Shown here: positions 11,963 through 43,023 of the stretch, piece after piece
Layout of the letters: every line of letters starts with the position of its first letter
How positions within the stretch are numbered: position 1 is the first letter of the stretch
Assembly: GCA_028710985.1 (NCBI GenBank)
Contig: JAQTTB010000001.1
Location: 19,280-83,279, forward strand
DNA: 64,000 bases
Source: Patescibacteria group bacterium
GTDB lineage: Bacteria; Patescibacteriota; Patescibacteriia; JAHJFT01
Direction of reading: 5' to 3'
Program-made: the position numbers and the translations under genes
The notes under the pieces: model-generated
The model's input: only the letters and a program-made list of their open reading frames with translations
Told to the model about the DNA's origin: nothing
Databases searched by the model: none

Positions 11963-11964
11963 TT

Positions 11965-14993: not shown

Positions 14994-15005
14994 AAAAATA
15001 ACAAA

Positions 15006-15036
15006 AAATAGGTGTTTGCAGACACCTATTTTTTTA
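15006..15036. terminator. bidirectional rho-independent terminator
   Basis: aaaaaaTAGGTGTttgcagACACCTAttttttt between the convergent genes 13614..14993 and 15039..15956. Confidence 0.65.
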
Positions 15037-15038
15037 CA

Positions 15039-15956: not shown

Positions 15957-16004
15957 ATTACCGATCTTTATTTATTTAAATTATTGTAGCATAGACTGAA
16001 TCTT

Positions 16005-16033
16005 TTGACAAGGGCGGCTAATTCGGATAAAAT
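16005..16033 (+). promoter_or_regulatory. candidate sigma70 promoter TTGACA-N17-TAAAAT for the flippase gene and the start of the AT-rich island
   Basis: TTGACA agggcggctaattcgga TAAAAT. The -10 ends 21 nt upstream of the ATG at 16055. Confidence 0.45.
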
Positions 16034-16054
16034 ATTGAATATTCATAAAGACCC

Positions 16055-17308
16055 ATGGAAATCAAATTAATAAAAATCGCTGAAAAATTTTTCAAAACCG
16101 ACATTAATTATTTAATTAAGGGCGGCTTTTGGCTTACTTCCGGGCAAATCCTTACTTCGCTGTCATCTCTAATTTTAGCAATCGCTTTTGCCAATTTGCT
16201 GGAAAGAGAATCTTATGGCACCTATAGATATATTCTTTCCGCAATCGGCATCATTTCGCTCTTTACTCTTCCGGGAATAAATACCTCTTTGATAAGATCG
16301 ATAGCGAATAATTTTTCCGGATCCTACCTGAAGGCAATTAAGACAAAGTTTAAATTTTCACTGATTGCCACTATAGCTTGCTTAATAGTCGGAATATATT
16401 ATTTTTATTGCCAAAATAATGAAATTGCCTTTTGTTTCTTTATTATTGCATCCATTATCCCTTTCAATAAATCATCCGAACTCTATTTGTCTGTACTGAA
16501 CGGCCAGAAAAGATTTAAACTCTATACTATTCTATATGCGAGTTCAAATATTATTGCAACGTTGTCAATAATCTTAACTTTATTTTTCACGGATAGTTTA
16601 GCGCTAATTTTAACGTCGTATTTCTTATCTTATACGATCCTGCAATTAATATTTTCTTTGTACGTAAAAAAATACCTAAACAACAATGAGGCTGATAATA
16701 CCGTTGAATATGGCATTCATTTGAGCATAATGGATGTAATCAAAACGATCGCCGGACATCTCGACAGGATACTCATATTCAACGCAATGGGACCGTTAGA
16801 GGTGGCTATTTACTCTTTTGCCGTTGTCCCGCATAGCCAGGCAAAAAGTTTCCTCGAAAATATTAAAGTCCTCGCTTTCCCCAAACTTAGCGCGTCCAAC
16901 GAGGAGGATATAAGAAAATTTTTACCAAAAAAAATTCTAAAAATGGAGCTCATAATCGCAATCTTGGTAATCATCTACATCTTCGCCGCTCCGACCCTAT
17001 TCCAAATATTTCTCCCGAAATACATGGATTCGGTCCTCTATTCCCAAGTGTACTTTATCTCGTTGATATTTTTCCCAAGAACAATTTTATCTACCGCAAT
17101 GACCGCAAAAATAAAAAAGAAAGAACTTTATTCCATAAGAATCCTCAGTCCAATACTAAGAATTATACTGATGGTCGTCGGATTAAAATTCTTTCAACTT
17201 TGGGGCGTACTCGTCGCGGGTATGGCGGCAAATGCGCTCATGATGTTAATCTACGGCTATTACTTTAAAAAAGCATTCAAGCAAATCACTTATCAATCAT
17301 CTCTCTAG
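16055..17308 (+). CDS. polysaccharide biosynthesis protein, Wzx-like oligosaccharide flippase (MOP/MATE-like superfamily)
   Basis: 417 aa with about 12-14 predicted TM helices. Typical size and topology for Wzx. It is the only plus-strand gene in the island. Confidence 0.6.
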   Translation: MEIKLIKIAEKFFKTDINYLIKGGFWLTSGQILTSLSSLILAIAFANLLERESYGTYRYILSAIGIISLFTLPGINTSLIRSIANNFSGSYLKAIKTKFKFSLIATIACLIVGIYYFYCQNNEIAFCFFIIASIIPFNKSSELYLSVLNGQKRFKLYTILYASSNIIATLSIILTLFFTDSLALILTSYFLSYTILQLIFSLYVKKYLNNNEADNTVEYGIHLSIMDVIKTIAGHLDRILIFNAMGPLEVAIYSFAVVPHSQAKSFLENIKVLAFPKLSASNEEDIRKFLPKKILKMELIIAILVIIYIFAAPTLFQIFLPKYMDSVLYSQVYFISLIFFPRTILSTAMTAKIKKKELYSIRILSPILRIILMVVGLKFFQLWGVLVAGMAANALMMLIYGYYFKKAFKQITYQSSL

Positions 17309-18071
17309 AAAAAAGACTGTTGCGGGGATATATCAGCAAGATCTGAAATAGCAAATATACTATCGAAAAAATGATATATAGACCATACATCCATACTCCA
17401 TATCTAATATCGTACAAGCAAACCAATAATATCAATAAATACCATATCCATACGAAGTCGTAGATCATACTTACCGAATAGTTAAGAAATTTCATAAAAA
17501 CCTTTTTACCCGTAAAGAGGTTTTTATTATAATCCCTGAGGACATCCTGATGATTTTCAAGAGTAACTTTATATTTGATATGATGCCTCAACTTACCTAG
17601 CATTTTATAGTTAGTGAGCAATATGGAAAAAACAATGCTCGAAATTAATATCAGCATGTTCTGCGTAAGAACATAAAGAAAAACGCCCGTAGAAAAAGTC
17701 AAGGCAAACGGATAATAGAAATGAAATAATATCTCGTAATATATTCCCCTCTGAGTATAATGCTCACGATATCGGGCAATACCACCGTCTACCTTATCCA
17801 ACATTGATGATATTCTCATCAAAATAAGCTGGATAAAATATATCCAGAAAGGATCTACGGCAAATAACAGTAAATTAATAAAAAGGGAGATAATCAATAA
17901 CGCCACATTCAAAACGGACACGAAGTTGGGCGAAATTTTTGGAAAAATATTTAACAAAATAAATGTTATATACAAGGCCAGATAGCGTTCTGCGCGGTAT
18001 ATAATACCGCTCTTTTTTATTTTTTCCTGCTTGCCCAAGAAACATTTATCCCTCAGCTCAGAAAATGTCAT
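17286..18071 (-). CDS. CDP-alcohol phosphatidyltransferase-like polytopic membrane protein
   Basis: Contains DKVDGGIARYREHYTQRG, a partial match to the DG-x2-AR-x8-G CDP-OH_P_transf motif. Multiple TM helices. Confidence 0.4.
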   Translation of the reverse strand: MTFSELRDKCFLGKQEKIKKSGIIYRAERYLALYITFILLNIFPKISPNFVSVLNVALLIISLFINLLLFAVDPFWIYFIQLILMRISSMLDKVDGGIARYREHYTQRGIYYEILFHFYYPFALTFSTGVFLYVLTQNMLILISSIVFSILLTNYKMLGKLRHHIKYKVTLENHQDVLRDYNKNLFTGKKVFMKFLNYSVSMIYDFVWIWYLLILLVCLYDIRYGVWMYGLYIIFSIVYLLFQILLIYPRNSLFSREMIDK

Positions 18072-19177
18072 ATAAATTTAAATAATTTAATTAGTTTATC
18101 CGTCTGCTGTGATAAGGAAAAATTATCACGGACATGGGAAAATGCCGCCATCCCCATTTTATTTCTAGTTTCACTATCCAGCATTTTCTTTATAGCATTA
18201 CTGATTTGATCTTCATTGCCACGCTCAATAATAAACCCATTCACATTATCAAGCACTATCTTATTTATTCCCCCTACGGCAGTTGAAATAACCGGCAATC
18301 CACATGACATGGCCTCCAGTACGGCATTTGGACAACCCTCATTTTTAGAGTATAAAATAAAAATATCGGCCAATAGATACTGTTCTTTTAATTCCTCTCT
18401 ATCCAATAAACCGGTAAAAATAACTTTTTCTGCCAGCCCTAAATCAAGCGCAATTTTTTCGAAATGCTGCCGCAATTGACCCTCGCCGACGAGAACAAGT
18501 CTGGCGATAGGCAGACCCCGATCCACCATTTTTTTAAAAAAATAAATTAATTGTTCCTGGCCCTTGTTCTCATTTTTCATCGAGCCCACATTCAATAACG
18601 TTACCCGGTCAATTTTTTTACCTTTTCTTAATTCCCCCAATGCTCCTTCGGATATTTCAATTTCGACTCCATTATTAATAACAATCATCCGGTTTCGATA
18701 GAATGGCTGATACTTGACTAGGCTGTTCATTACTTCTTCTGAAACGGCGATTATCCTATAGCAACAAAAATTTAAAAAAACATCGATTATCCTTAAAAAC
18801 AAACTCTTTCGATCCGCCATCCCCGATTCTCGAATTAAAACCCTCAGCCTCGGATTAAAAATTTTCAAAAGTCTAGCAACGACGTTCGCCACATCTAGGG
18901 TAGAATAAACAAATTTTATATTGTTAGTTTTCACAAAAAGCAGGGTTCGATAAAATGATCTAACGTCAAATAAATACTTAAAATTAAAACTCACTACTTC
19001 ATTTTTTATTCGTAATTTGGAAACGAAGGTCTGTTCGGCGCGAAAAATCGTAGCAAAAAAAATATTAAATCCCTGCGCCGATAAATAGTTAGCCTGTTTT
19101 ATAAAATAAGTTTCGGCGCCGCCGACACCCAATCCGTTTATCAAAAGTAATATATTTTTAGTTGCAGATTCTTTCAT
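18068..19177 (-). CDS. glycosyltransferase family 4
   Basis: N-terminal LLINGLGVGGAETY. C-terminal NEGCPNAVLEAMSCGLPVIST. Confidence 0.75.
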   Translation of the reverse strand: MKESATKNILLLINGLGVGGAETYFIKQANYLSAQGFNIFFATIFRAEQTFVSKLRIKNEVVSFNFKYLFDVRSFYRTLLFVKTNNIKFVYSTLDVANVVARLLKIFNPRLRVLIRESGMADRKSLFLRIIDVFLNFCCYRIIAVSEEVMNSLVKYQPFYRNRMIVINNGVEIEISEGALGELRKGKKIDRVTLLNVGSMKNENKGQEQLIYFFKKMVDRGLPIARLVLVGEGQLRQHFEKIALDLGLAEKVIFTGLLDREELKEQYLLADIFILYSKNEGCPNAVLEAMSCGLPVISTAVGGINKIVLDNVNGFIIERGNEDQISNAIKKMLDSETRNKMGMAAFSHVRDNFSLSQQTDKLIKLFKFI

Positions 19178-19178
19178 A

Positions 19179-19847
19179 TCAGTTACACCGCACCACGGCC
19201 CATATTTCCCCCCAATTTATTTTGTAATCCGATATAGACATTCCGGCTGAATTCAGCTCTTCGGAAAAGTCATTAAAAGTATATTCAATAAAATGATTCC
19301 GATCCAATCGATATTCAAGTCCAAGCTCTTTTTTATACGGCACTAACCAATCCCGATTAATCATCGGCACGCGTATTAAAGCGATATCGCAAATATTTTT
19401 TATTTGCTTTAAAAGAGAAGTCCTATCATCTATATGCTCCAGTACATTAGATACTACGACGCGATCAAATTTTTCATTAAAACTATACTGTGTCGCATCG
19501 GCGACAATATATTCAACGTTTGGCAACGCGCAGTGCGATTTTGCATACTCAATACTGGTTTTATTCATATCAATCCCCACGACTCTTTTGGCCTTTTTGG
19601 CAATCTCGCGGGTCAAAATACCATTACCGCAGCCAATATCAAGGACGGTGTGCGATGGCTCGATATTATTTAGAAAAAAATCGTGATATTCAGTGAGGCG
19701 ATGCTTTGGATGTATCCCCCCCTCTCGCAATGAAGCGACCGTGACAATTTTATGCAATGCCCAATCGTGCAAATAAAATAATCGCCTCAGGATCCAGAGG
19801 GATAAATTTTTATTTTTAAACGCTCTTTTTAATAAATCCTTTAGCAT
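19179..19847 (-). CDS. class I SAM-dependent methyltransferase
   Basis: VLDIGCGNGILTREIA is SAM-binding motif I. 222 aa. Confidence 0.7.
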   Translation of the reverse strand: MLKDLLKRAFKNKNLSLWILRRLFYLHDWALHKIVTVASLREGGIHPKHRLTEYHDFFLNNIEPSHTVLDIGCGNGILTREIAKKAKRVVGIDMNKTSIEYAKSHCALPNVEYIVADATQYSFNEKFDRVVVSNVLEHIDDRTSLLKQIKNICDIALIRVPMINRDWLVPYKKELGLEYRLDRNHFIEYTFNDFSEELNSAGMSISDYKINWGEIWAVVRCN

Positions 19848-20775
19848 ATTCTTTTAATGTGGAACTAATAATACTTTTTTTCTTTGAAAAAATCAGCATC
19901 TTTTCAAACAAATCATAAAAATGTTCCAATTCCTGTTCATTTTTCACATAAGGGCTTCCGCCGATCATCAGCTCGCTTGAATGCACCATAAAAACAGCTA
20001 CGGGAAAATTTTGTCTGAGTAAAGCTTCGAGCACAGACCTTATTTCATCAAAACTTGAGTTTGAGAATATCCTCAACCACCGCTGTTTAAAAAATAATTT
20101 ATTTAATACTTTTTTCAATAACGAATCCGGCAATAAAGCAAATGACCTAGAAATATATGAGGCCTCTCCAACGAAAGGTGAGGTAAACGCAACTGTCATC
20201 GGCACCTCCAATACCCCGTCCACTACCGAGGGCATCAGCGACGAACCGCGAAAATCCGGTCCCCGTCTATCGTGGCCGCCGGAAGAATTATTCTTCCATG
20301 ATATCTTTGGGGTTACCGAGCTGTCGGCGATATAGCCCAATTTATTCAAAAATCGCATTATCCGAATATCATAACCCCAGCGTCCGGCTCGATGAGTCTT
20401 TGGACTTATGCCAAAATTTTCCGCAATCGCCTTTGTTAAAGATGATAATTTTTTGTACAGCTCTTCGTCTTCAAGCTCATTAGGAAAACGATGCTTCAGC
20501 ATTTCCCATTCCCTGTCCTTCACACAAGGCGGTGTTGTCCAAGGATGCAAATGAGCCCCAACTTCCGCTGACCCGGAATCCTGAAAAGGCTTAAGAATAT
20601 TTACCGATTCTCTATCTACCGCAACCTCATAAGTTATAAAATATGTCGGTTTAAAGCGATATTTTTGGCAAAGCTCCTGGAAGCGAGGCAGAAATTTAAT
20701 ATTTTCAAGTGTAATTTCCTCAGATCTTTTCCACTGGTTGTCCGCCTCAACATCAACGGTTATTATTAATTTCAT
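19816..20775 (-). CDS. polysaccharide deacetylase-like protein (divergent)
   Basis: An ITVDVEAD N-terminal beta-strand and His-rich segments resemble divergent carbohydrate esterase 4 (CE4) deacetylase proteins. Weak call. Confidence 0.4.
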   Translation of the reverse strand: MKLIITVDVEADNQWKRSEEITLENIKFLPRFQELCQKYRFKPTYFITYEVAVDRESVNILKPFQDSGSAEVGAHLHPWTTPPCVKDREWEMLKHRFPNELEDEELYKKLSSLTKAIAENFGISPKTHRAGRWGYDIRIMRFLNKLGYIADSSVTPKISWKNNSSGGHDRRGPDFRGSSLMPSVVDGVLEVPMTVAFTSPFVGEASYISRSFALLPDSLLKKVLNKLFFKQRWLRIFSNSSFDEIRSVLEALLRQNFPVAVFMVHSSELMIGGSPYVKNEQELEHFYDLFEKMLIFSKKKSIISSTLKEYAKGFIKKSV

Positions 20776-22406
20776 ACATTTTTAAAACCCCTGATTCGCA
20801 TCCAATATTTGATAACGCTTGAATACACCTTGTAATAATAGTAACATTGTTTTCTTTCACCGCCAAATGCTTCCTTGAATTCAGCGATTGACCTGAGCCC
20901 CCTCTGATTTGAATCCGGACTTATGCCGCCTAAGTCAAAAATTTCATGATCCGTTAATTTCGCGTATCGAATTGCCTCCCAAACGATCATCCGATTTGCC
21001 TGCCCCACAATCTCGCACTGCTGGCTATCGGAAAAACGCAGTGAGGAAAGAGCCCAAGCACGAATATTCCTAGTATCGCTGATAAAAATACCGCCGGCGA
21101 TCATTTCGTTTTTATAATAAGCGGAAAAAAGTAAGCCGTTTTCTAGATAATGGTTGACTCTTTCGATGGGCAAACCTTTTTCTGAGCGAAAAATACTATA
21201 AATTCTTCTAAATTCCTTATGATTTAGGTCATTTTTTACGATAATCCCATTTCTTTCCCCTCTTTGAATCTGTTTACAGATATAATTTTTCCTCATCTTG
21301 CTCCAAATCGTTTCAATGCTCTGTCTTAAATCAATTACCGTGGTTAAACCCGCTCGTTTATGAAAATCTGGCTTATCAATATTGTGATAGGAAAAAAAAT
21401 TGATCATTCCAACGCCTGGAATGTCTTGCGGATCCTCAAACCATCGCCAGCACTTTTTTAAAAAATTAGTGTCAAATAAACCATAGCAAATCCGGCTAGA
21501 AATTACCGGCTTATGCGCCTTTATTAATATAAGATGTGAAAAACCTCTGATTATCGGCAAGTGTTCAGCGAGGCGAAAAAGCGTTGGATAAATTTTTTTT
21601 AAAAAACCCATCCTCTGTTCAAACGGAAGCGCTATGTCAATGAAACTAACATTGTCGATAAAAAAATTTTTGTTAAATAAATTTATTATATCTTTCGCGG
21701 AAAAATAATAATAATAAATACCCGAAGGATGAACTCCCTCTTTTGGTAATTTCTTTAATCTCCTCCTTAAATCAAGATGATACGCCGATAAAATCAACGG
21801 CTTGCCCGGCGCAAGGGTGAAATTAATGTTTTGGAGAAACTGATTACGATACGCATCGGATGGCAAATGCTCTAAGACTTGGGCAGAGAAAGCAATATCA
21901 AAAAAACCTTTTGCTGTTTTAAACGACGTTACGTCAGCCCAGACCAAACCAACATTATTGGATTTTAATTTGCACGAAAGTATCTCCAGCGAATTAAACG
22001 AGATATCCACCCCCAATAAACAACTATAATCAACAAATTCCTCTGTAAAACGACCTGTTCCGCAGCCATACTCAATTATTTTTTTTCCCGATACGTCGCC
22101 GACTTGCGCAAGCGTTGAGGGAATTTCCCTATCATGCCTCGCAGACAATCTAGCGTCATAACCGCCAGCTTGCGCATCTCTAACGGCTATCTCAGAACCT
22201 ATTTTTTCATCATTGACCGTCTGCTCCGGCAATATAAACAAAATCCCATTTTTAATTTGATATGCTTTCCCACAACGAACGCATTTTAGAAAACCATTAA
22301 ATATTGCCTCGTCATTGCCGCTTTCCATGCCACCAATTTCAAGACGAGCGTTATCAGATTGACAGACCAGGCAAGCAATAAGTTTTTTCGAAAATCCTAT
22401 CCTCAT
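20772..22406 (-). CDS. tri-domain fusion: Trm112-like zinc-ribbon + class I SAM methyltransferase + C-terminal FemAB/GNAT-like acyltransferase domain
   Basis: CLVCQ...CVRCGK zinc ribbon. IIEYGCGTGRFTEEF SAM motif. C-terminal region of about 190 aa with a GNAT/FemAB-like pattern (IRAWALSS...FDLGG). Confidence 0.55.
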   Translation of the reverse strand: MRIGFSKKLIACLVCQSDNARLEIGGMESGNDEAIFNGFLKCVRCGKAYQIKNGILFILPEQTVNDEKIGSEIAVRDAQAGGYDARLSARHDREIPSTLAQVGDVSGKKIIEYGCGTGRFTEEFVDYSCLLGVDISFNSLEILSCKLKSNNVGLVWADVTSFKTAKGFFDIAFSAQVLEHLPSDAYRNQFLQNINFTLAPGKPLILSAYHLDLRRRLKKLPKEGVHPSGIYYYYFSAKDIINLFNKNFFIDNVSFIDIALPFEQRMGFLKKIYPTLFRLAEHLPIIRGFSHLILIKAHKPVISSRICYGLFDTNFLKKCWRWFEDPQDIPGVGMINFFSYHNIDKPDFHKRAGLTTVIDLRQSIETIWSKMRKNYICKQIQRGERNGIIVKNDLNHKEFRRIYSIFRSEKGLPIERVNHYLENGLLFSAYYKNEMIAGGIFISDTRNIRAWALSSLRFSDSQQCEIVGQANRMIVWEAIRYAKLTDHEIFDLGGISPDSNQRGLRSIAEFKEAFGGERKQCYYYYKVYSSVIKYWMRIRGFKNV

Positions 22407-22408
22407 AT

Positions 22409-23521
22409 TTATCCTAAAATCTTCATTAAATCATTATAAAACCGATCGGGGTTATACTGATTCTTTATCAATTCAAAGCCGGCATTTCCCATTTTTATTA
22501 AGTTGTGCTGATCCGAAATAGTCAGGCGAATCTTATCTATTAAATCGACCAAATTTTTACTTTCAAAGATGTAACCATTCACGCCATTCTCAATATATTC
22601 CTTCGTTCCATTTTCGCTCGAACTAATAACCGCCAGTTTGCAACTCATTGCTTCAACTATCGAAAAAGCCGCGGCTTCACCATAGCTCGGTAAAATGAAT
22701 ACATCATTTACTTTATATTCTTCATAAACATCCTTCCAATTAATATCAAATTTCACCTTCACAATTTCCGATAAATTATTAACTTTAATGTACTCTAATA
22801 ATTCATTTGTATATTCATTCTCATCCCTTTCGCCGACTAATGTAAGATTAATATTAAAATTATCTTTTAATTTTTCAACGGCCTTAACTAATAAAATCTG
22901 ATTCTTGCGCTCTTGGAATTTACCTACGCAGATAATATTAACCCATCCGCCAATAAAATACTCCTTGTTGAAGTCAAGCGCTTCATGAACAAATGGAATA
23001 TAAAAAAGATTCTTATTCTTACTTGCATAAGCGTCGTTACCCCTCAATGGAGTAATTACCGACGCCTTCCACAAAAAACCAACCAGCCAAATCGAGAAAC
23101 TCTTGATTTTTTTTCTAAATTTTTCAATTTGAATTAAAAAAATAATTTTTTTAACACCCAGGAACCGACTTAGAAGCGCGCCAAGGATTGAATAAAGACT
23201 ATCAATATTTTTTATCAGCACAACGTTCGGCCGATATTCCTTTATCAAATGATATAGTGAAAATATGGGTGGATAGCTATATCGTATCTCGAACCGATTC
23301 TTAATTGTGCGTCCACCCCGCTTATTGAATATTCTATTAAATAGCTTAAAAATATTCGAATATCCAACAACTCGCGGTTCTAGAATATCATAGCATTCTG
23401 ATTTTCCGCGATACATAACAAACATGGCCACTTCGTGTCCAAATGACTGAAGGGCCTCAATCATGTAGAAAAAATTTGTATGATATCGCGGGGTAAGAAA
23501 TAAAAATTTCATTGATTTCAA
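22409..23521 (-). CDS. glycosyltransferase family 4
   Basis: C-terminal GEAAAFSIVEAMSCKLAVISS GT4 motif. Confidence 0.7.
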   Translation of the reverse strand: MKSMKFLFLTPRYHTNFFYMIEALQSFGHEVAMFVMYRGKSECYDILEPRVVGYSNIFKLFNRIFNKRGGRTIKNRFEIRYSYPPIFSLYHLIKEYRPNVVLIKNIDSLYSILGALLSRFLGVKKIIFLIQIEKFRKKIKSFSIWLVGFLWKASVITPLRGNDAYASKNKNLFYIPFVHEALDFNKEYFIGGWVNIICVGKFQERKNQILLVKAVEKLKDNFNINLTLVGERDENEYTNELLEYIKVNNLSEIVKVKFDINWKDVYEEYKVNDVFILPSYGEAAAFSIVEAMSCKLAVISSSENGTKEYIENGVNGYIFESKNLVDLIDKIRLTISDQHNLIKMGNAGFELIKNQYNPDRFYNDLMKILG

Positions 23522-26050: not shown

Positions 26051-26054
26051 ATAA

Positions 26055-26981: not shown

Positions 26982-27080
26982 ATTTTTTTATAATCCACCG
27001 GAAACTGCTTCTCATAAATTGGCAATAAATAATCAAATTTTCCCCACTGATATCCGAATCTCTCTTCAGAACCCATACAT

Positions 27081-28913: not shown

Positions 28914-28919
28914 AGATAC

Positions 28920-29327: not shown

Positions 29328-29346
29328 CTTGAAAAAATTAATAAAG

Positions 29347-30783: not shown

Positions 30784-30800
30784 AACTGGATTTAAAATGT

Positions 30801-31754
30801 CTAAAAATTAATTTTAGATTTTAAAACGTACGGTTTCTCCCCTCGCGATTCATAATAAGTGCGCATGATCAATTCCGCTAAAACACCCATGGCGATAAGC
30901 TGTATGCCGACAATGATAAATAAAGCAGTCAATATCGGCAATGGAGTCTCCACGAAACTTCTTAATCCAAAAATTTTAAGCACAATCGCAGATAGGCCGG
31001 CCATAATCCCGACAAAAAGCGCGATAAACCCCATCCCTCCAAAAAAATGCATCGGCTTATTCAAATACTTTTCAAAAAATTTTATAACTACCAAATCCAG
31101 TAAAACTCTAAAAATTCTAGATAAACCATAATTGCTCCGACCGGCTTTTCTTGGACGATAGTTTACCTCCACTTCTGTCAGATTAGCGCCTTGGCGTACG
31201 GCATAAGCCGGTATAAACCGATGCATTTCTCCATAGAGGGAAAACCCGTGTAATATTTTTTTTCTATATGCCTTCAATGTGCATCCATAGTCATGCAACT
31301 TAACATTAGTAATTCTTGAAATCAACCAGTTCGCCATGAGGGAGGGCAGTCTACGACTTAATTTATTCTTTTGCCAACGCCCGCGACGCCACCCGGAAAC
31401 AACGTCATACCCGTTATTAATACGCTCCAAGAGCCTTGGAATATCGGCCGGGTCATTTTCTAAATCACTATCCATGGTCACGATTATATCACTGCTCGCA
31501 TATTCAATCCCGGCTTGAAGCGCGGCGGTTTGTCCGCGATTTACCGCAAAACTTAAAACCTTAATTTTATTATTATCGCCCGCTAGTGATTTTAACACGG
31601 CCAAAGAATTGTCGCTCGACCCATCGTCAACCAGAATTATTTCATAATCATAACTATTCCTCTCCATTACGGACACGATCTCTCGGACCAATTCCAATAA
31701 ATTTTTTTCCTCATTATAGACTGGTATAACAATCGATAAATGCATATTTCCCAT
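30801..31754 (-). CDS. glycosyltransferase family 2, GtrB/ArnC-like polyprenyl-phosphate sugar synthase
   Basis: LSIVIPVYNEEKNLLELV...LVDDGSSDNS...MDSDLEND plus two C-terminal TM helices. Confidence 0.8.
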   Translation of the reverse strand: MGNMHLSIVIPVYNEEKNLLELVREIVSVMERNSYDYEIILVDDGSSDNSLAVLKSLAGDNNKIKVLSFAVNRGQTAALQAGIEYASSDIIVTMDSDLENDPADIPRLLERINNGYDVVSGWRRGRWQKNKLSRRLPSLMANWLISRITNVKLHDYGCTLKAYRKKILHGFSLYGEMHRFIPAYAVRQGANLTEVEVNYRPRKAGRSNYGLSRIFRVLLDLVVIKFFEKYLNKPMHFFGGMGFIALFVGIMAGLSAIVLKIFGLRSFVETPLPILTALFIIVGIQLIAMGVLAELIMRTYYESRGEKPYVLKSKINF

Positions 31755-33418: not shown

Positions 33419-33430
33419 ATTTTATGAAAA

Positions 33431-34159
33431 TTATTTTCTACATATCGCCATCAACGAAACGCCGAATGGAAAATTAAAACGCTTCAATACAAACGCTTCC
33501 AGGGAAAACACCCAAAATAATATACGAGATAAGGGGCCGCCGCTGCCGACAAATTCGATTTTCTTAACAGAAAAAAAAGCTTTTTCGAAAAAACGGAAAA
33601 ATAATATTGGCAAAAATAAAATGGTATTAAAATACGAAGAACGTACAACGTGCAAACCCAAACTCCGTAATTTTACAAAAATTTGATTGTAGGTATAACG
33701 GCGAAAATGATGTCCCGCCTCATCGGCCCAGCCCCACAAAAAATTAAAAGCAGGAACAAAAATAATAATTATTCCTTCTTTTTTTACTACACGTTTCAAT
33801 TCACTAATAGCTTTATTATCATCAGACACGTGTTCTAATACATCGAGGCAAATCACAACATCAAAAAAATTATCTGGAAATTGAATATTCGTAATATCTC
33901 CCAAATCGACATTCTCTAAAAAATTTTGTTTACAAAAATTAACGGCCAACGGGCTATTATCAACGCCATAACAAACACCGAATTTTTTGAGCTCCTTCAT
34001 CAGCATACCCGTGCCACAACCGACATCGAGCATCTTCAATGCACCACTATGGTCAGAAAAAAAATTACTGATTATATCAGCTACAATTCTTCGCCTCACC
34101 CTATACCACCAATTATCTTTTTCAGCTGTATAAATTAATTTATAGACGTCAGATCGCAT
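33431..34159 (-). CDS. class I SAM-dependent methyltransferase
   Basis: MLDVGCGTGMLMKEL SAM motif. Confidence 0.7.
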   Translation of the reverse strand: MRSDVYKLIYTAEKDNWWYRVRRRIVADIISNFFSDHSGALKMLDVGCGTGMLMKELKKFGVCYGVDNSPLAVNFCKQNFLENVDLGDITNIQFPDNFFDVVICLDVLEHVSDDNKAISELKRVVKKEGIIIIFVPAFNFLWGWADEAGHHFRRYTYNQIFVKLRSLGLHVVRSSYFNTILFLPILFFRFFEKAFFSVKKIEFVGSGGPLSRILFWVFSLEAFVLKRFNFPFGVSLMAICRK

Positions 34160-34166
34160 AACTTTA

Positions 34167-35237
34167 TTAAATATTCTTATCTGGATAAAAATTATCCATC
34201 AAACGCTCAATTAAAAAATCCAAACTATGCTCGCGGATTATAATTTCTCTCAATCCCTTGCCTAACGCCACCCGCCTGTCTACATCCATAGTCAATAAAT
34301 TTATCAATTTATTCTTAAAATCATTCACGTCATCCTCCTCAAAAACCATCGGCTCAGGCAAAACATCCTTTAGCGCCCTATTTGATACCAGCACCGGCAT
34401 TTCACAGGCCATGGCTTCAAAAATTGTCTTATCCATGCTCCCGCTCTGTGTAAAATTAACATAAAGCGCGTGTTGGTTATAAATGTTCGATGTCTCACGA
34501 TATGGCACGCCAGGATAAAAAGAAAGCATTCCTGCGCCCTCCAGCTCCTTGCCCGCTCCCCTGACTCTTTGATAATATTCCGCATCGGAATCGGTCGGAT
34601 CGCCATAGATACTCGCCGTAAAGCCAATTCCTTGGCCATGCAGATCAGACAAAGCGTTAACAAACATTTCGACTTTCTTAACTGGCGATATTCTCCCCAG
34701 AAACAATACGGATTTTTCATATTTCGCCGATGGATCGAAACCTTTAAATATATCTGTGTCGATCCCAACGGGCATAATCCTTGCTTTTTTATACCGCGAG
34801 CAAAACGAATTTGGTGAAGTGTAGAATACGTTATTGGAAAATAAGACGCCAAACCTAGTTATGATATTACCAATCTTGTGATTGTGCCATAGAAAAATTT
34901 TTTTATTAAAAATTCTCCACAATATACCGGCCATAACAATATATTCCGGATTCATATGGACAAAAATAACGTCGTAATCCCTAATTAGAAAAATAATATT
35001 TTTATAAAATTCGATAATATAGCCAACCCGACTCTTCCTTTTTTCCTTTTCCAGGGATATAACTCGCACATTGTTTGGCAAATTATATTTTCCTGACTCT
35101 AGACAAACTACGTTAACAGTATCAAACGATGGGCTAATCTTCATAATCCAGTTATGAAAAAATCCAAGCACTTTATCGTCCCTGTCAACCTTCTGAGTAA
35201 TAATTAGCAGATTTATTTTTTTATCGCCTTGTCCCAT
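34167..35237 (-). CDS. glycosyltransferase (GT-B fold, GT4-like)
   Basis: C-terminal GSMDKTIFEAMACEMPVLVS motif. Confidence 0.65.
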   Translation of the reverse strand: MGQGDKKINLLIITQKVDRDDKVLGFFHNWIMKISPSFDTVNVVCLESGKYNLPNNVRVISLEKEKRKSRVGYIIEFYKNIIFLIRDYDVIFVHMNPEYIVMAGILWRIFNKKIFLWHNHKIGNIITRFGVLFSNNVFYTSPNSFCSRYKKARIMPVGIDTDIFKGFDPSAKYEKSVLFLGRISPVKKVEMFVNALSDLHGQGIGFTASIYGDPTDSDAEYYQRVRGAGKELEGAGMLSFYPGVPYRETSNIYNQHALYVNFTQSGSMDKTIFEAMACEMPVLVSNRALKDVLPEPMVFEEDDVNDFKNKLINLLTMDVDRRVALGKGLREIIIREHSLDFLIERLMDNFYPDKNI

Positions 35238-36337
35238 GTTTCGTTATAAAGTTTTAATGTCGCCTCCTTGCCCGGAAGTCGCTCTAACGCGTTCTTGGCA
35301 TTTTGACTAAACTTCATTTTTAATTCAGGGTTATTCTTTACTTTGACCAATGCGTCAGAAATCGCACTTATATTATTTACCGGGACCACGATACCATTCT
35401 CATAGTTTTTTACCACCTCTCCGGCGCAACCGACGTCGGTCATGATAACTGCGCAGCTGCAAGCCAGGGATTCAATAGCCACCCTGCTCCATCCTTCGTA
35501 TTCAGAGGTCAATAAAACACAATCCGCTCCCTTAAAAAAACTCACAACGTCCTGGGTCCAGGGAATGAAAATCACCGATTCACCCAAGCCCAATTCGCCT
35601 ACCAATCTTTTTAATTCTTTTTCCTGACTCCCCTCGCCAACAATGAGCAAGCCGCTCTTAGGACTTTTTTTTAAGAACATTAAAAATGCTTTTAAGGCAA
35701 CGTCTATTCTTTTTACCCTCTCCAATCGCCCCATAACCAGAGCGATAAAATCAAATTGTGAATATTTTTCCTTTAGATTAAAATCCGGCTCCTTTAATTC
35801 CAGACTTTTCCAAGGTGTGCAAATCGGCAGAACCGTTATCTTTTCTTGATTAATCCCTCTCTTGATTAAGTCCCGCTTGATTCTCTGACTAACCGCTCTG
35901 ATAGAATCGGCCTTTTTTATAATTCCCAAGCCAAGATACCATCGTAGATTGTTCAAAAAATTTTCTCCGCGCCAATGAGGATTACTAAAAAAATCGCCAT
36001 GGAGTTGAATATTCAAACCTAAACCGAATTTTCTTTTAGCGAAATATCCGATTAACCCGATGGCAAACGGGTCTTGAACCGAAACGACATTAATATTGCT
36101 GCGCTTAATAATGCTGGCTGCTTCCCTCCACAATTTTAACCAGCCAAAAAATTTATTATTAACTCCCACGGATCGTACGAATACGTTGTCGGTTAATTGT
36201 ATATTCGTGCTACAACCAGCCGGCAGCAAAATATAAAATTTATTACCAATAAAATTGGCGTAACTCTTAAATCTCTCCTGTGTCTCGCTACCCGACTTTA
36301 AAATTCTTGCATCGGTGCCAATTATCAAAATGTTCAT
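35213..36337 (-). CDS. glycosyltransferase family 4
   Basis: C-terminal EYEGWSRVAIESLACSCAVIMTDVG motif. Confidence 0.75.
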   Translation of the reverse strand: MNILIIGTDARILKSGSETQERFKSYANFIGNKFYILLPAGCSTNIQLTDNVFVRSVGVNNKFFGWLKLWREAASIIKRSNINVVSVQDPFAIGLIGYFAKRKFGLGLNIQLHGDFFSNPHWRGENFLNNLRWYLGLGIIKKADSIRAVSQRIKRDLIKRGINQEKITVLPICTPWKSLELKEPDFNLKEKYSQFDFIALVMGRLERVKRIDVALKAFLMFLKKSPKSGLLIVGEGSQEKELKRLVGELGLGESVIFIPWTQDVVSFFKGADCVLLTSEYEGWSRVAIESLACSCAVIMTDVGCAGEVVKNYENGIVVPVNNISAISDALVKVKNNPELKMKFSQNAKNALERLPGKEATLKLYNETWDKAIKK

Positions 36338-37338
36338 TTCAGCTTCAAATTAATTGCTTTAATTATCGGCTTATTGGCAATGCTGCAGTTTTTGCATACC
36401 GGCAATTCCTGCTCAATGACTGCTCTTCTGATTTTTGCGTATTTATCGCTCTGCCAAATTTTATTAAAACTTCTTTCTTCAAAAACATTACCAACCACGA
36501 TGCTCCCCTCAAGATCGGTGCAGCATACACCCACATCACCGTTCCAAAGTATCACACTGCGCCAAATCCAGGGGCATGTCTTTGGCTTATCTATATTCAC
36601 GAGTCTACCCTCCTTCAGGCGATAGCGACTATTTTTTAAATCCGTTGGCAGAAACTCCAAGGCATTTGCTAGAAGCTTTTCCTGAAGTTCGGCCGTTGAC
36701 CCGATATTGAAAGAAGCGCTTTTAAACCACAGGGCGTCAACTCCGAGCTTGCGGCCCAAATCCTCAATCGCTCCCATCTCACGCTCATTGAACTTCATTA
36801 CCAAGAATTGAATAATAATCCTTGTCTTGCGGTTTTTGATGCCCGCTATCTGCCGCAGGGTTCCAACTATTTTATTAAAATCGCTATTGACACGATATTT
36901 CTGCTGCGTCTCGGCCGATGCTCCGTCCATGGCAAAAATCAAATTATCAATTCCATAGCCGACCGCCTCGCGATACCTTTCAACCGGCATGGTCCCATTA
37001 GTACTAACTGTCAATATATAACCGTGGTCTTTGAGATACTTCACCATCGCCGGAAACTCAGGATTGGCGAATGATTCGCCGGAAAAGTGCAAAGTAATTT
37101 TTTTGATGCTCCTGGGCAAATAACTTTCTATTTCCTCGAGCTGTTTCAAGGTTAAAAATCCTCTCGGCTTGGTTGACGTTCTCTGAATGCAAAACGGACA
37201 ACGCAAATTACAAAAACTCGAGGCCTCAATAATTATTTCTTTAAGCGGCCTAACCCTCCGAATCCAGGCATCTGGAAGCAATAACAGCGCTCTGTTGAAC
37301 AGAGTCGATTTACTTATTTTATCTTTCAGCCAATACAT
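36334..37338 (-). CDS. radical SAM protein with C-terminal SPASM/twitch Cys cluster
   Basis: CNLRCPFC (CxxxCxxC) near the N-terminus. C-terminal CPWIW...CCTDLEG...CKNC cysteine cluster. Confidence 0.75.
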   Translation of the reverse strand: MYWLKDKISKSTLFNRALLLLPDAWIRRVRPLKEIIIEASSFCNLRCPFCIQRTSTKPRGFLTLKQLEEIESYLPRSIKKITLHFSGESFANPEFPAMVKYLKDHGYILTVSTNGTMPVERYREAVGYGIDNLIFAMDGASAETQQKYRVNSDFNKIVGTLRQIAGIKNRKTRIIIQFLVMKFNEREMGAIEDLGRKLGVDALWFKSASFNIGSTAELQEKLLANALEFLPTDLKNSRYRLKEGRLVNIDKPKTCPWIWRSVILWNGDVGVCCTDLEGSIVVGNVFEERSFNKIWQSDKYAKIRRAVIEQELPVCKNCSIANKPIIKAINLKLK

Positions 37339-38449
37339 ATCGTTTTATTATATTCAGGGTATCGGTCGCCGTATCTTTCCACGTGCGGTTTAATTCACCT
37401 TCTTTTATATCTGGACAAATTCTTTCATAATCAGATTCCTCGGCCAAACGAGCAATGTCTTTTTTTATTTCTTCGCGATCCATTGGATTAGTCAAAGTGG
37501 ATCTACCTTCAAAAATTTCTTCCATACCATTATCCCTGGTAATAATCAGGGGTTTCCCGAGTTTCATGCATTCCATGCCAAAATTCGGGCTGATTTCCGA
37601 AAACGAAGGCAGGATGCAGGCATAGGCCAATTTTATCCTTTCAATAACCCCTTGATGCGGAATGCCGTCAAATATTTTTATATATTCATCTGACCGGCTC
37701 TCTCGAACAATTCGTTTTAAATTATCTTTTTCGGGACCATCGCCATAAACACTCAAAAAAATCTTTTTTCCCTCGGTACGAAGCTCGACAAAAATTTTAA
37801 TTAAATCAGCCAGATTTTTTAATTTTATCAATCTGCCAGCAAATAAAAATATTTTATCCGGTTCAGCGTAACTCAATGACTGCCCTTTTAAAATCTGAGG
37901 GAATGGATTTAAAATAACGCTGCTCTTGGCCTCAATGAAAGGAAATACTTTCAAATAAATATTTCTCTGAAAATCGGTAGAAAAAATAATATGGGAACTG
38001 CGTGTTAAAACCAATTTAATAAGACGAAAGGCCATGCCACGCGTATATAAGTTTCTGCCGTAATATTCCGATAGCGTAACCCTTTGGCCGGATTCAGCCG
38101 CTTTCTCCCAAAGATAATCTCCACCGAGACGCAAAAATATTTTTTTTCTTAAATATACATTGGCAATTGCGGTTGGCAAACCAGCGCTCAATATATCAAA
38201 TGTATAAATGAGATCCGCCTTTCGTCCGTGTCGCAAGACATTAATAAAAAAGGTGAAATATCTAATATAAACACACGGCTTTCTTGAAACACCGTGGATT
38301 CTCATCCCCTCCACCGCATTTGGCTGGCCATATGTAATTATTTCGATCTCATGGCCTAATTTTTTTAGCTCCGCAGATAAATTTTCTACATACGTTGCTG
38401 GCCCGCCAATATCCGGTGGAAATATGCCCGTTGTGATCAATATCTTCAT
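37319..38449 (-). CDS. glycosyltransferase family 4
   Basis: N-terminal MKILITTGIFPPDIGGPATYVENL. C-terminal ISPNFGMECMKLGKPLI. Confidence 0.75.
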   Translation of the reverse strand: MKILITTGIFPPDIGGPATYVENLSAELKKLGHEIEIITYGQPNAVEGMRIHGVSRKPCVYIRYFTFFINVLRHGRKADLIYTFDILSAGLPTAIANVYLRKKIFLRLGGDYLWEKAAESGQRVTLSEYYGRNLYTRGMAFRLIKLVLTRSSHIIFSTDFQRNIYLKVFPFIEAKSSVILNPFPQILKGQSLSYAEPDKIFLFAGRLIKLKNLADLIKIFVELRTEGKKIFLSVYGDGPEKDNLKRIVRESRSDEYIKIFDGIPHQGVIERIKLAYACILPSFSEISPNFGMECMKLGKPLIITRDNGMEEIFEGRSTLTNPMDREEIKKDIARLAEESDYERICPDIKEGELNRTWKDTATDTLNIIKRYVLAER

Positions 38450-39558
38450 TTTAAATATTTATCATATTCCCCGCTCACTTGCCGAACAACCTTATCCCAG
38501 TTGAATCTTCCCAACCCCTGAAAAGCATTATTTCTTAATCGTTCGCGCAGTTCCTGGTCGCTAAGAAGACGCTTTATGGCCGCAGCGATGGCTTCCGAAT
38601 CTCGCGGCGCAATTAAAAGCCCGGTTTGATTATCGGAAATAACATCCGGAATTCCGCCGACTCGCGTTCCTATAACTGGCGCCCCGCACGCCTGGGCTTC
38701 AATAAAGACAATACCTAAACCCTCAGCGAGCGATGGACAAATAAATATTTGAGCCTTGCCCATCTCCCTAAGTGTCTCTTCGTGCGGCAGTTTACCCAAG
38801 AGCGTAACCCTGCTCCCCAAATTCAATTCCTTTATCATCCGCTCAATTTCCTGTCTTTTATTTCCCTCCCCAACCATAACCAAATGAGCATTGGGAAATT
38901 CTTGAAAAACCGAGGGCAACGATTTTATTAAATAATCCAATCCTTTTTCCCAGGAGAGTCGCGCCACGCAGACGATTCTTCCCGGGATCGGTTCGGCCTG
39001 ACTTTGTTTTGCCAGCTCAAGGTCAACCCCATTCGGAATAATTACAACCTTGCCCTGATCGGTCCTCAATTTCTTCGCGCGTTCAGCAAGCGACGAGCTA
39101 ATCGCAGTTACAAGATCGGGCGTAGAGTGAATTCTTTTCCAAAGAAATGCGGGAATTTTCTTGCTCGGATCGTCCAGATCGCCGCTTTGTAAAGTCAGGA
39201 TTGTTGTAATTTTTTTATTAAAAATTGAAAAAAGCCACAACGCGATGCCGGCATAGCTCTCCATAACTGCATGAACCAAGTCCGGCTTTAATTTTTTGGC
39301 TAAAATTACAGCAAAAATCGGATACAGCCATTTATCAAAAGAACTGCCGATTCCAACGCGGTAGTACTTAAACTTGTCCCGCTGTTCAAATTTTGGCAGT
39401 TTCTTATCTAATCGAGCGCTGATGATTGTAAAATCATATTCTCCAGCCAGCCGTTCAACCACTTCTTTCACAAACATCTCCGCACCGCTGATAAATGGGT
39501 CGTAAAAGCAAGAAAAAATTACAATTTTTTTTTGTCCATTCATTCTATAAAAAATCAC
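38446..39558 (-). CDS. glycosyltransferase family 4
   Basis: C-terminal LAEGLGIVFIEAQACGAPVIGTRVGGIPDVI GT4 motif. Confidence 0.75.
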   Translation of the reverse strand: MIFYRMNGQKKIVIFSCFYDPFISGAEMFVKEVVERLAGEYDFTIISARLDKKLPKFEQRDKFKYYRVGIGSSFDKWLYPIFAVILAKKLKPDLVHAVMESYAGIALWLFSIFNKKITTILTLQSGDLDDPSKKIPAFLWKRIHSTPDLVTAISSSLAERAKKLRTDQGKVVIIPNGVDLELAKQSQAEPIPGRIVCVARLSWEKGLDYLIKSLPSVFQEFPNAHLVMVGEGNKRQEIERMIKELNLGSRVTLLGKLPHEETLREMGKAQIFICPSLAEGLGIVFIEAQACGAPVIGTRVGGIPDVISDNQTGLLIAPRDSEAIAAAIKRLLSDQELRERLRNNAFQGLGRFNWDKVVRQVSGEYDKYLK

Positions 39559-40265
39559 TTAATTACTTTTTCCTGAATTGAACTATATTGACTACTCTTC
39601 AAAGCCTCCAGCCCCTTCATTTCGTTCTCCAGTCTTTTTATCATTTCCGGATGGGCATAGGCCTTATCAATTAACTCTTTCCATCGAGGCTCCTGCTCGA
39701 TTAATACATCTTCCGCGGAAATGAAATCCACGTCGACATCGCTATATATTGGATTGTCTTTCTGAAACTTTTTACAAAAAGCTTCCGATCTCGGAACATG
39801 ATAAGCATTCGTAACGATTAAAATATGGTTCCAAAAATTTTCCTTTGCTATCCTGAATAGTTCTTCAAAATTCTGCTTGGTATTTTTGGAAACTTTTTCA
39901 ACAAAAATCGATTCTTCCGGTATTCCTCTTCCCACTAACTCTTTTTTCATCAACTCACTTTCCTCCGGCGTCTCCGGTGGCTCGCTTTCAAGATAGTTAG
40001 GCTTTCCAGTGACAGTCAAAACGTTCTTTGCCGTGTCGCCCTTTTTAAAGAGATACTCCGTGGCAATAACTCTAATCCGGCCACCTAAGGCGCCGAATGC
40101 ATCGCCTTCGGAATAGGCCGTCGTGCGCCATCCGAATTTTTCATGCTTTCTCATTGCGCCACTCAACGTGATAATGGCGTCATAGCGATATTTATTTTCC
40201 TTTTCAACGTTAGTCTCATCAAATATTTCGCCGGTCACCGATGAGACTCCTTCGGATAATGGCAT
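39555..40265 (-). CDS. hypothetical protein, possibly DUF218/YdcF-like
   Basis: IITLSGAM...GRIRV pattern. Weak call. First gene after the epimerase in the long minus-strand operon. Confidence 0.4.
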   Translation of the reverse strand: MPLSEGVSSVTGEIFDETNVEKENKYRYDAIITLSGAMRKHEKFGWRTTAYSEGDAFGALGGRIRVIATEYLFKKGDTAKNVLTVTGKPNYLESEPPETPEESELMKKELVGRGIPEESIFVEKVSKNTKQNFEELFRIAKENFWNHILIVTNAYHVPRSEAFCKKFQKDNPIYSDVDVDFISAEDVLIEQEPRWKELIDKAYAHPEMIKRLENEMKGLEALKSSQYSSIQEKVIK

Positions 40266-40267
40266 AT

Positions 40268-41254: not shown

Positions 41255-41308
41255 ATTTTGAGTAGAATTAGCTGTTTTATTGACTTGAAATTAATATAAC
41301 ATTAGACT

Positions 41309-43021: not shown

Positions 43022-43023
43022 GC

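Follow-up and report, generated by a model that had tools for sequence, protein, structure and literature searches.

A stretch of 64,000 nt from contig JAQTTB010000001.1 of a Patescibacteria group bacterium, hereafter called the window, carries a large locus of predicted surface-glycan genes. The centre of this locus is an AT-rich block of glycosylation genes, hereafter called the island; the glycan locus as a whole is much larger than the island. The G + C (GC) content of 1-kb segments was 0.32-0.42 across 16-38 kb and 0.44-0.56 elsewhere in the window, with a single exception of 0.61. The averages over the parts of the window were as follows:

1-14,993: left flank, GC 0.496
15,951-38,400: low-GC block, GC 0.371
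38,446-41,254: operon head, GC 0.432
41,397-64,000: right flank, GC 0.494

Between 15.7 and 15.9 kb, at the left edge, the GC of 200-nt segments dropped from a level of 0.45-0.54 to one of 0.30-0.39. This abrupt edge, about 200 nt wide, corresponds to the 98-nt intergenic region between an epimerase gene (15,039-15,956, minus strand) and the flippase gene (16,055-17,308, plus strand). The right edge was stepwise: GC was 0.47-0.48 at 38.4-39.0 kb, decreased again to 0.36-0.40 at 39.2-39.6 kb and reached host-level values only from about 41.8 kb onward.

The following genes were identified in the island (GT, glycosyltransferase; TM, transmembrane; SAM, S-adenosylmethionine; numbers with the prefix L denote the loci of other genomes with which the window was compared):

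16,055-17,308 (+): Wzx-type flippase (PF01943, 58.6 bits, cutoff 28.2) with about 9 TM-like segments, convergent to the operon, the end of which it overlaps by 23 nt
17,286-23,521 (-): distal end of the operon (Pfam, NCBIfam), collinear with L033 at 41-57 % identity, coding in plus-strand order for a CDP-alcohol phosphatidyltransferase-like membrane protein, a GT4, a methyltransferase, a polysaccharide-deacetylase-like protein, a 544-aa methyltransferase with a FemAB-like C-terminus and a further GT4
23,518-25,224 (-): 568-aa polytopic membrane protein of Gtr-like module 1, about 10 TM-like segments
25,193-26,050 (-): GT2 of Gtr-like module 1, similar to polyprenyl-phosphate-sugar synthases (full-length matches to AglJ and to dolichyl-phosphate-hexose transferase, below the cutoffs)
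26,055-26,981 (-): SAM-dependent methyltransferase of 308 aa (PF13489, 73 bits)
27,081-28,913 (-): AsnB-type glutamine-dependent amidotransferase of a kind linked to exopolysaccharide (EPS) loci (PF00733, 317 bits; TIGR01536, 434 bits, above the cutoff; TIGR03108, 472 bits, below the cutoff)
28,920-29,399 (-): GtrA (PF04138, 54.5 bits)
29,347-30,783 (-): double methyltransferase, inserted into Gtr-like module 2
30,801-31,754 (-): ArnC/GtrB-like GT2 (PF00535; PRK10714, ArnC, over the full length at 203 bits, below the cutoff)
31,754-33,418 (-): 554-aa polytopic membrane protein, about 9 TM-like segments
33,431-38,449 (-): last low-GC and poorly conserved part of the operon, with genes for a methyltransferase, two GT4s, a radical SAM/SPASM protein and a GT4 (Pfam)

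Read in the direction of transcription from 38.4 kb, the order is thus GT4, radical SAM/SPASM, GT4, GT4, methyltransferase, 554-aa protein, GT2, double methyltransferase, GtrA and AsnB, followed by a methyltransferase, the AglJ/dolichyl-phosphate-hexose-transferase-like GT2, the 568-aa protein, GT4, the methyltransferase with the FemAB-like end, the deacetylase-like protein, methyltransferase, GT4 and the CDP-alcohol-phosphatidyltransferase-like protein. Five methyltransferase genes are present, including the one with two methyltransferase domains and the one with the FemAB-like C-terminus. The 554-aa and 568-aa polytopic proteins are distant paralogues; each has a C-terminal soluble domain and accompanies a GT2 resembling polyprenyl-phosphate-sugar synthases. 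No credible match to either was found in Pfam (to an E value of 5), in NCBIfam or with a five-sequence profile against PDB sequences. This arrangement suggests two Gtr-like modules that would decorate the glycan outside the cytoplasm, the putative assignment of the polytopic proteins as GtrC-like/GT-C transferases being made solely from context and topology.

The composition of individual genes was compared between 20 island genes and 26 flank genes (Mann-Whitney test; GC1, GC2 and GC3 are the GC contents at the three codon positions):

GC: island 0.369, flank 0.496, p = 1e-8
GC1: island 0.407, flank 0.550, p = 4e-8
GC2: island 0.320, flank 0.383, p = 3e-5
GC3: island 0.382, flank 0.557, p = 1e-8

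The GC3 ranges were nearly disjoint, with a maximum of 0.490 in the island and a minimum of 0.486 in the flanks. Relative synonymous codon usage (RSCU) correlated at 0.92 between the two flanks and at only 0.23 and 0.35 between the island and each flank. For arginine, the RSCU of CGC decreased from 2.4 in the flanks to 0.77 in the island and that of AGA increased from 0.46-0.70 to 1.79. The FYMINK amino acids, which have AT-rich codons, made up 37 % of the island proteins vs 27-29 % of the flank proteins. Members of the same families in the flanks served as a control:

GT4: flank GC 0.507, island GC 0.372
GT2: flank GC 0.496, island GC 0.387
GtrA: flank GC 0.410, island GC 0.290

Because the GT4, GT2 and GtrA genes of the flanks have a higher and mostly host-like GC, gene function could be ruled out as the cause of the drop.

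The preliminary description of this DNA, made from the sequence alone, had proposed an AT-rich compositional island with a sharp fall in GC at its left end. Both proposals were borne out, by the difference in GC (0.371 vs 0.494-0.496) and GC3, by the divergent codon usage and by the position of the fall in the epimerase/flippase intergenic region. The GC of the flanks had been overstated at 50-58 %, as they actually average 49.5 %. The same description had considered that the genome itself might have about 35 % GC, with only the flanks atypical, or that island and core genes might be identical in codon usage. The housekeeping genes pgk, gap, tsf and rpsB lie within the flanks at 47-52 % GC, so that in the 64-kb window the flanks are genome-typical and the island is the outlier, and the RSCU correlations given above differ clearly between island and flanks. 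The host had been called CPR-like (CPR, candidate phyla radiation), which was also correct: proteins encoded in the window are 100 % identical to those of the Patescibacteria group bacterium named as its source at NCBI (e.g. MDD4994879.1), and more distant homologues with organism names were labelled Parcubacteria, Uhrbacteria, Portnoybacteria and Vogelbacteria.

Relatives of the locus were found through homologues of the WbaP-type and Wzy_C-TPR proteins in a protein database, and the contigs that carry them were then compared with the window. No relative with more than about 70 % WbaP identity was found in the protein database, the GTDB species genomes or the metagenome contigs. Among the GTDB species genomes the best full-length WbaP match was only 46 % identical (metagenome-assembled genomes, MAGs, labelled Saccharibacteria and Portnoybacteria), and there was one C-terminal fragment with 76 % identity (L013). 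Apart from L072, a further locus with the cassette type of L026, the metagenome contig scan gave only short or duplicate loci.

The left flank of L022 is collinear with that of the window, and L024 and L026 cover part of it in the same order. The identities to L022, the only relative whose locus reaches rpsB, were 69 % for tsf, 80 % for rpsB, 64 % for a 698-aa protein, 50-59 % for the GT4s, 62-74 % for the GT2s, 79 % for the epimerase, 59 % for GtrA and 70 % for WbaP. The right flank is syntenic in L028, L030 and L032 (without a match to the 23S-rRNA-IVP family gene in L032), with overall identities of 47-73 % in L028 and L032 and of 38-64 % in the more divergent L030. By gene, the identities over these three loci were 54-60 % for the GT4, 60-63 % for Wzy_C-TPR, 52-59 % for the S8 peptidase, 52-69 % for the giant 1,259-aa protein, 38-48 % for the DUF5667 protein and 63-68 % for the sigma factor. 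Since L022 and L028 lie on one 196-kb contig, they could be merged into the complete 41-kb locus of a single relative.

Between these conserved flanks at least four other cassette types occupy the same site:

L022/L023 (L022 11,429-21,377): APS kinase, ATP sulfurylase, CysQ-like phosphatase, five sulfotransferases, flippase, methyltransferases
L024/L025: UDP-glucose dehydrogenase, a full sulfate-activation set (ATP sulfurylase, APS kinase) with a CysQ-like phosphatase, three to four sulfotransferases, deacetylase
L026 and L072 (L026 4,108-14,061): sulfate activation, NeuB/NeuC/CMP-sugar synthase, methyltransferases, Glyphos_transf (teichoic-type)
L032: GT4s with Glyphos_transf

The operon head excepted, the island proteins match proteins encoded at this site by no more than 37 % identity; the flippase is only about 37 % identical to the flippases of the relatives. 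The genes at 33,431-38,449 are 33-48 % identical to the position-matched genes of L028 and L032. On the left the synteny ends at the stop codon of the WbaP gene (14,993). On the right it ends at about 38,446, where the next gene past the GT4 of the operon head falls to 33 % identity, and this boundary coincides with the point at which GC recovers. The merged L022/L028 locus follows the same plan, with a low-GC core of 0.33 between flanks of 0.44-0.45, and in the other relatives the cassettes have 0.34-0.38 GC between flanks of 0.40-0.42. All cassettes examined are 4-11 GC points under their own flank. The comparison with relatives that the preliminary description had suggested therefore turned out as it had predicted, with conserved flanks and other gene sets in between. 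Its suggestion of lateral acquisition and a variable glycan is supported for differences between species- or genus-level relatives, the nearest of which has a WbaP identity of 69-70 %.

Homologues of the island itself were found in other lineages. The best non-self matches of the AsnB protein were 51-64 % identical, and those with organism names were Parcubacteria or Vogelbacteria MAGs, all of them Patescibacteria. The top match, L033, lies on a 68-kb contig with 35 % GC throughout the part seen and belongs to a more distant Patescibacterium. In its cassette, 13 genes with 40-64 % identity are collinear with those between 31,754 and 17,286 of the window; the cassette has a convergent flippase at its end and adjoins a GT4/Wzy_C-TPR pair of its own, the flanking GT4 being only 33 % identical to that of the window. 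Gtr-like module 1 (23,518-26,050) is 51-60 % and Gtr-like module 2 (28,920-33,418) 41-56 % identical to L033. A further locus, L034, has the distal module in common with the window at 46-61 % identity. The lineages with the nearest relatives of the island are thus more distant than are the genomes with the same flanks, a pattern that points to lateral exchange or a long-lived cassette polymorphism and not to simple vertical descent.

No sufficiently long match to the 308-aa methyltransferase (26,055-26,981) was found in the L033 cassette. In L033 a different methyltransferase gene follows asnB, and a relic of it remains in the window at exactly the syntenic position, in the only sizeable gap of the operon, next to which the 308-aa methyltransferase gene now stands:

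26,972-27,076 (-): 34-codon methyltransferase relic, peptide MGSEERFGYQWGKFDYLLPIYEKQF..., 59 % identical to the N-terminus of the L033 methyltransferase

The relic looks like a scar of recombination or replacement, which supports a mosaic evolution of the cassette. An internal promoter or terminator had been considered for the 99-nt gap (26,982-27,080) and was rejected, its predicted fold being no better than that of shuffled sequences (z = 0.43).

We consider it likely that the AT-rich block is the swappable, structure-specifying central cassette of a large, otherwise conserved surface-glycan locus in Patescibacteria. This locus seems to belong to the undecaprenyl-phosphate-linked, Wzx-flippase type. 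In the pathway order that we infer for it, the conserved flanks would supply the WbaP-like initiating phosphoglycosyl transferase, GtrA, epimerases, several GT4 and GT2 enzymes and the Wzy_C-TPR ligase/polymerase-like protein. The cassette would supply the flippase, GT4 transferases and the two Gtr-like modules, each with a polyprenyl-phosphate-sugar synthase and a polytopic transferase, together with a decoration set of methyltransferases, AsnB amidotransferase, deacetylase-like, CDP-alcohol phosphotransferase-like and radical SAM/SPASM proteins. Over evolutionary time the cassette would be replaced, whole or piecewise, by others circulating among Patescibacteria, so that related genomes would display different glycans; phage or host-recognition pressure may be the selective driver. 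No integrase or transposase domain was found in the 50 open reading frames (ORFs) scanned against Pfam, no tRNA in the tRNA scan, no Rfam element at gathering thresholds, and across 13-44 kb no flanking or boundary repeat beyond chance-level 22-37-mers. Exchange would therefore be explained most economically by recombination, most likely homologous, within the conserved genes of the flanks. The galF-gnd and dexB-aliA loci are analogues for such recombination-driven cassette exchange.

Several observations weigh against, or qualify, the reading of a replaced cassette of foreign ancestry. When normalised for composition, the signatures of the island are near those of the host: CpG observed/expected was 1.37 in the island vs 1.38-1.48 in the flanks, tetranucleotide observed/expected ratios correlated at 0.81-0.85 between island and flanks (0.95 between the flanks), and Karlin's delta* was 79-87 between island and flanks (51 between the flanks). 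They give no sign of recent import, and with a host-like dinucleotide signature the low GC alone is no proof of a (recent) foreign origin. In the operon, the 2.8 kb nearest to the promoter (38,446-41,254) are conserved rather than variable. GT4 identities to L033 are 33-49 % within the cassette and 33 % for the flanking GT4, so that the phylogenetic incongruence rests on presence/absence and collinearity, not on trees. A lineage like the low-GC L033 was rejected as direct donor, its CpG observed/expected being 0.48 vs 1.37 in the island. Finally, GC was reduced relative to the adjoining flank in every cassette seen, and a compositional force acting on this locus, instead of foreign ancestry, could be the reason. 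Low GC might then arise or persist in place, either because a hypervariable region without homologous partners escapes GC-biased gene conversion, or because codon selection is relaxed and the sequence drifts towards AT, or, in a variant of this explanation, because low GC is selected for regulatory reasons. The deficit of 4-11 GC points occurs regardless of gene content, and the CpG ratio of the cassettes tracks the resident genome (in the window, in L026 with 1.07 vs 1.04, and in L033 with 0.48 vs 0.53). The consistently low GC of wzx, wzy and GT genes has likewise been said in the O-antigen literature to need explanation (PMC3715488). Enrichment in place leaves unexplained, however, the non-homologous gene sets between syntenic flanks and the collinear homologue in a distant lineage, and the shifts in GC1, GC2 and amino-acid usage would need long residence under AT pressure. 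On its own it is an improbable account, and it is better regarded as adding to the main explanation than as replacing it; the pattern of the cassettes would be consistent with a pool of AT-rich cassettes at the family level or with a force at this locus that maintains their high AT content.

A mobile genomic island, or a prophage-borne glycan-modification element inserted site-specifically from outside the phylum, would account for the strong compositional contrast and the sharp left edge, and Gtr-type modules are phage-borne in enterobacteria. It is nevertheless very unlikely, given the missing integrase and transposase domains in the 50 ORFs, the missing tRNA and flanking direct repeats, the exclusively patescibacterial origin of the closest AsnB homologues with organism names, the host-like dinucleotide signature and the other glycan cassettes that the same insertion frame holds in relatives. 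The contrast in composition could also be an artefact, arising from a chimera of assembly or binning, as can occur in MAG contigs, or from an organism of really about 35 % GC with only the flanks atypical. Logan contigs from three separate runs (SRR22315506, SRR22315508 and SRR22315509) match the window at 100 % identity and extend over both junctions (13,515-25,956 and 31,855-43,080), and the same, identical cassette is present in all three. Four of these contigs from the three runs all terminate at the same two positions, 13,514/13,515 and 43,080, in DNA of host GC 1.5-2 kb outside the variable region; these shared ends, which could be taken as a sign of chimerism, could reflect branching of the assembly graph in the flanks through strain variants or repeated k-mers. 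The flanks agree with each other (RSCU 0.92, tetranucleotides 0.95) and carry pgk, gap, tsf and rpsB, and the plan of flank, cassette and flank recurs in independent assemblies of relatives, including one 196-kb JGI contig. An artefact is thereby effectively refuted.

The right-hand part of the locus contains the following features:

38,446-39,558 (-): GT4 of the operon head, 65-75 % identical in L030 and L032
39,555-40,265 (-): DUF218 protein of the operon head (Pfam), a gene that L030 and L032 lack between the two neighbouring genes
40,268-41,254 (-): epimerase of the operon head, 80-81 % identical in L030 and L032
41,309-41,337 (-): sigma-70-like promoter TTGACG-N17-TATAAT upstream of the 22-gene array, the best match (11/12) in 29-43.5 kb
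41,397-41,789 (+): 23S-rRNA-IVP family gene (Pfam), 61-63 % identical in L028 and L030
41,855-43,021 (+): GT4, right anchor (Pfam)
43,417-45,660 (-): ligase/polymerase-like membrane protein with Wzy_C and TPR domains (PF04932, 72.6 bits, cutoff 31.7)

The preliminary description had counted 22 co-directional genes in the island. This number is reached only when the array is followed to 41,254; within 16,000-39,560 there are 20 genes on the minus strand plus the flippase gene on the plus strand. It had also reported many overlaps of 4-50 nt, and overlaps were indeed found at 12 of the 21 junctions, with lengths of 1-53 nt; at the remaining junctions the gaps are at most 17 nt, the sole exception being the 99-nt gap at 26,982-27,080. 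The promoter that it had placed at 41.3 kb is present at 41,337-41,309 on the minus strand, and no other promoter-like site of the region matched as well. Terminator-like sites in the array were not more numerous than in shuffled sequence. The layout of the genes is compatible with a single transcript of about 24 kb from the 41.3-kb promoter for the whole minus-strand array, which is plausible as a prediction from gene spacing.

The DUF218 gene is an indel inside the otherwise conserved operon head. A gene of the IVP family, coding for a four-helix bundle, is located at the promoter-side boundary of the cassette in the window, in L028 (13,659-14,039) and in L030 (7,559-7,936; 13,920-14,306), and L030 has a second copy near its S8 peptidase gene. 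The Wzy_C-TPR protein weakly resembles the WaaL-like chain 7tpg_B (E = 0.002), and by its sequence it may be a polymerase, a ligase or a protein O-oligosaccharyltransferase. Beyond it the right flank codes for an S8 peptidase, a secreted Thr/Ser/Ala-rich protein of 1,259 aa, a DUF5667 protein, an extracytoplasmic function (ECF) sigma factor and more GT4s. Farther to the right, a gene on the plus strand at 55,488-56,699 is an outlier in the opposite direction, with a GC of 0.61 and a GC3 of 0.74 amid DNA of 49 % GC. Its product is acidic and rich in Asp, Ser and Cys, with repeated motifs and one N-terminal hydrophobic segment, and has no Pfam match.

In the left flank genes were found for pgk, a metallophosphoesterase, gap, a PsbP-like protein, tsf, rpsB and a 698-aa polytopic membrane protein, and further for two GT4s, two GT2s, an epimerase and GtrA, followed by the WbaP-type transferase. 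The preliminary description had mentioned WbaP, gap, pgk and a surface protein in the flanks, and all are present, the surface protein being a large one. The features that bear on the left boundary were:

1-755 (-): pgk, cut by the start of the window
4,975-7,071 (+): 698-aa protein with many TM-like hydrophobic segments and no Pfam match, 64 % identical to a protein at the same position in L022
13,536-14,993 (+): WbaP-type initiating polyprenyl-phosphate glycosylphosphotransferase (PF02397, 208 bits; TIGR03025, 367 bits, cutoff 295.6)
15,003-15,036: bidirectional terminator-like hairpin AGGTGT-TTGCAG-ACACCT, an inverted repeat bordered by an A-run and, at its opposite end, by a T-run
15,039-15,956 (-): NAD-dependent sugar epimerase/dehydratase, best match TviC/GalE-like (PF01370, 201 bits; NCBIfam matches)
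15,983-16,033 (both strands): divergent promoter-like hexamers, TTGACA-17-TAAAAT on the plus strand (11/12, 16,005-16,033) and TTGTCA-17-TACAAT on the minus strand

The gene of the 698-aa protein adjoins rpsB and the GT genes of the flank, and the protein may act in the conserved part of the pathway as a glycosyltransferase of the GT-C type. The WbaP-type gene, syntenic and 62-70 % identical in L022, L024 and L026, is the conserved left anchor. The hairpin sits between the convergent WbaP and epimerase genes and, judged by its structure, probably terminates both transcripts. The epimerase next to it has a host-like GC of 0.479, yet is not conserved in position in the relatives, its best counterpart in L022, L024 and L026 being only 27 % identical. 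The flippase and this epimerase each have a divergent promoter-like site of their own in the 98-nt intergenic region.

The block of ECF sigma factor, DUF5667 protein, secreted Thr/Ser/Ala-rich protein of 1,260-1,310 aa, S8 peptidase and Wzy_C(-TPR) protein (43,417-53,546 in the window) is kept in L028, L030 and L032. The giant Thr/Ser/Ala-rich protein has no Pfam match. L078, from a Patescibacterium with 56 % GC, keeps this framework minus the S8 peptidase, with 31 % identity for Wzy_C and 42 % for the giant protein, and the GT4-Wzy_C layout of the right anchor recurs in the distant L078 and L033. The conserved neighbourhood suggests a functional link between the giant surface protein and the ligase-like Wzy_C enzyme. 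More tentatively, and with considerable doubt, the framework, to which the divergent GT4 would then also belong, might be an S-layer-like surface-protein O-glycosylation system of Patescibacteria, in which Wzy_C-TPR would act as an O-oligosaccharyltransferase on the adjacent giant protein and the cassette would diversify the glycan. If so, exchange of the cassette would change the host-attachment or phage-receptor specificity of these episymbionts.

CPR/Patescibacteria are mostly uncultured, many are thought to be attached to hosts, and their surface chemistry is little known. A conserved assembly framework with a swappable AT-rich glycan cassette would be an evolutionary device that they share with well-studied pathogens. 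Sulfated and nonulosonic-acid-containing surface glycans in CPR are predicted from the gene content of the relatives' cassettes, and the alternative cassettes together predict glycans that would be heavily methylated or amidated, sulfated and nonulosonic-acid-containing. Strong diversifying selection on the cell surface, by phage, host recognition or grazing, is indicated. The interval from the WbaP-like gene to the epimerase/IVP/GT4/Wzy_C-TPR block defines a chromosomal site for metagenomic surveys of glycotypes, in which the low GC of such cassettes should not by itself be taken as evidence of recent foreign origin. A limited literature search found no earlier account of glycan islands, whether low in GC or hypervariable, in CPR/Patescibacteria, which is not proof of absence.

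The Gtr three-component systems (GtrA/GtrB/GtrC) are comparable to parts of the island, which has a GtrA and two GT2s with full-length matches to synthases of the ArnC/PgfS/AglJ type, each of them followed by a protein with 9-10 TM segments, the position and topology expected of a putative GtrC-like transferase. Unlike in Gtr systems, the polytopic proteins belong to no Pfam, NCBIfam or PDB family, and the modules are located inside the main operon and are not phage-borne. With the XrtA/PEP-CTERM EPS loci the window shares a toolkit of EpsB-type sugar transferase, AsnB-like (TIGR03108-like) protein and FemAB-family domain, and also deacetylase-like, O-antigen-ligase-like (with TPR) and stp-type GT4 proteins. 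Most of the scores are, however, below the equivalog cutoffs, and no exosortase or PEP-CTERM protein was found in the window; the likeness is one of enzyme toolkit, not of system membership.

Gram-positive cps loci and the marine flexible genomic or glycotype islands have conserved flanks and a serotype-specific low-GC centre which is replaced by homologous recombination. The locus in the window is alike in its conserved flanks with a replaceable low-GC centre; it differs from cps loci in that no CpsABCD-type regulators or tyrosine kinase were found, and in that the variation seen here is among species- and genus-level relatives.

Close parallels were also seen with the O-antigen (rfb) clusters of Enterobacteriaceae, such as the galactose-initiated set of Salmonella between galF and gnd. 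The host here is a Patescibacterium, unlike that of the O-antigen clusters, and no scanned ORF matches a family of the lipopolysaccharide (LPS) core or lipid A, so that lipid A-core cannot be taken for granted as the acceptor of the glycan. No Wzz/PCP chain-length regulator was found by Pfam scan in 50 ORFs of the window, although one could lie outside it. In a further difference from O-antigen clusters, the initiating transferase, the ligase-like protein, at least six GT4 genes and two GT2 genes lie outside the variable block, and the variation is documented between species- and genus-level relatives only. The similarities extend to the gene set, with a WbaP-type transferase, Wzx, a Wzy_C protein, GTs and nucleotide-sugar genes, and to the presence of different structures at one chromosomal site, attributed in the O-antigen clusters to lateral transfer of whole clusters. 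They also include the gradient in GC from the flank to the structure-specific centre, which here runs 0.49, 0.43 and 0.37; in the Salmonella O-antigen loci the central GT and wzx genes have 28-37 % GC in a genome of 51-52 % (PMC3715488). The locus has the same design as the O-antigen and capsule loci and is of a familiar kind, here in a CPR genome.

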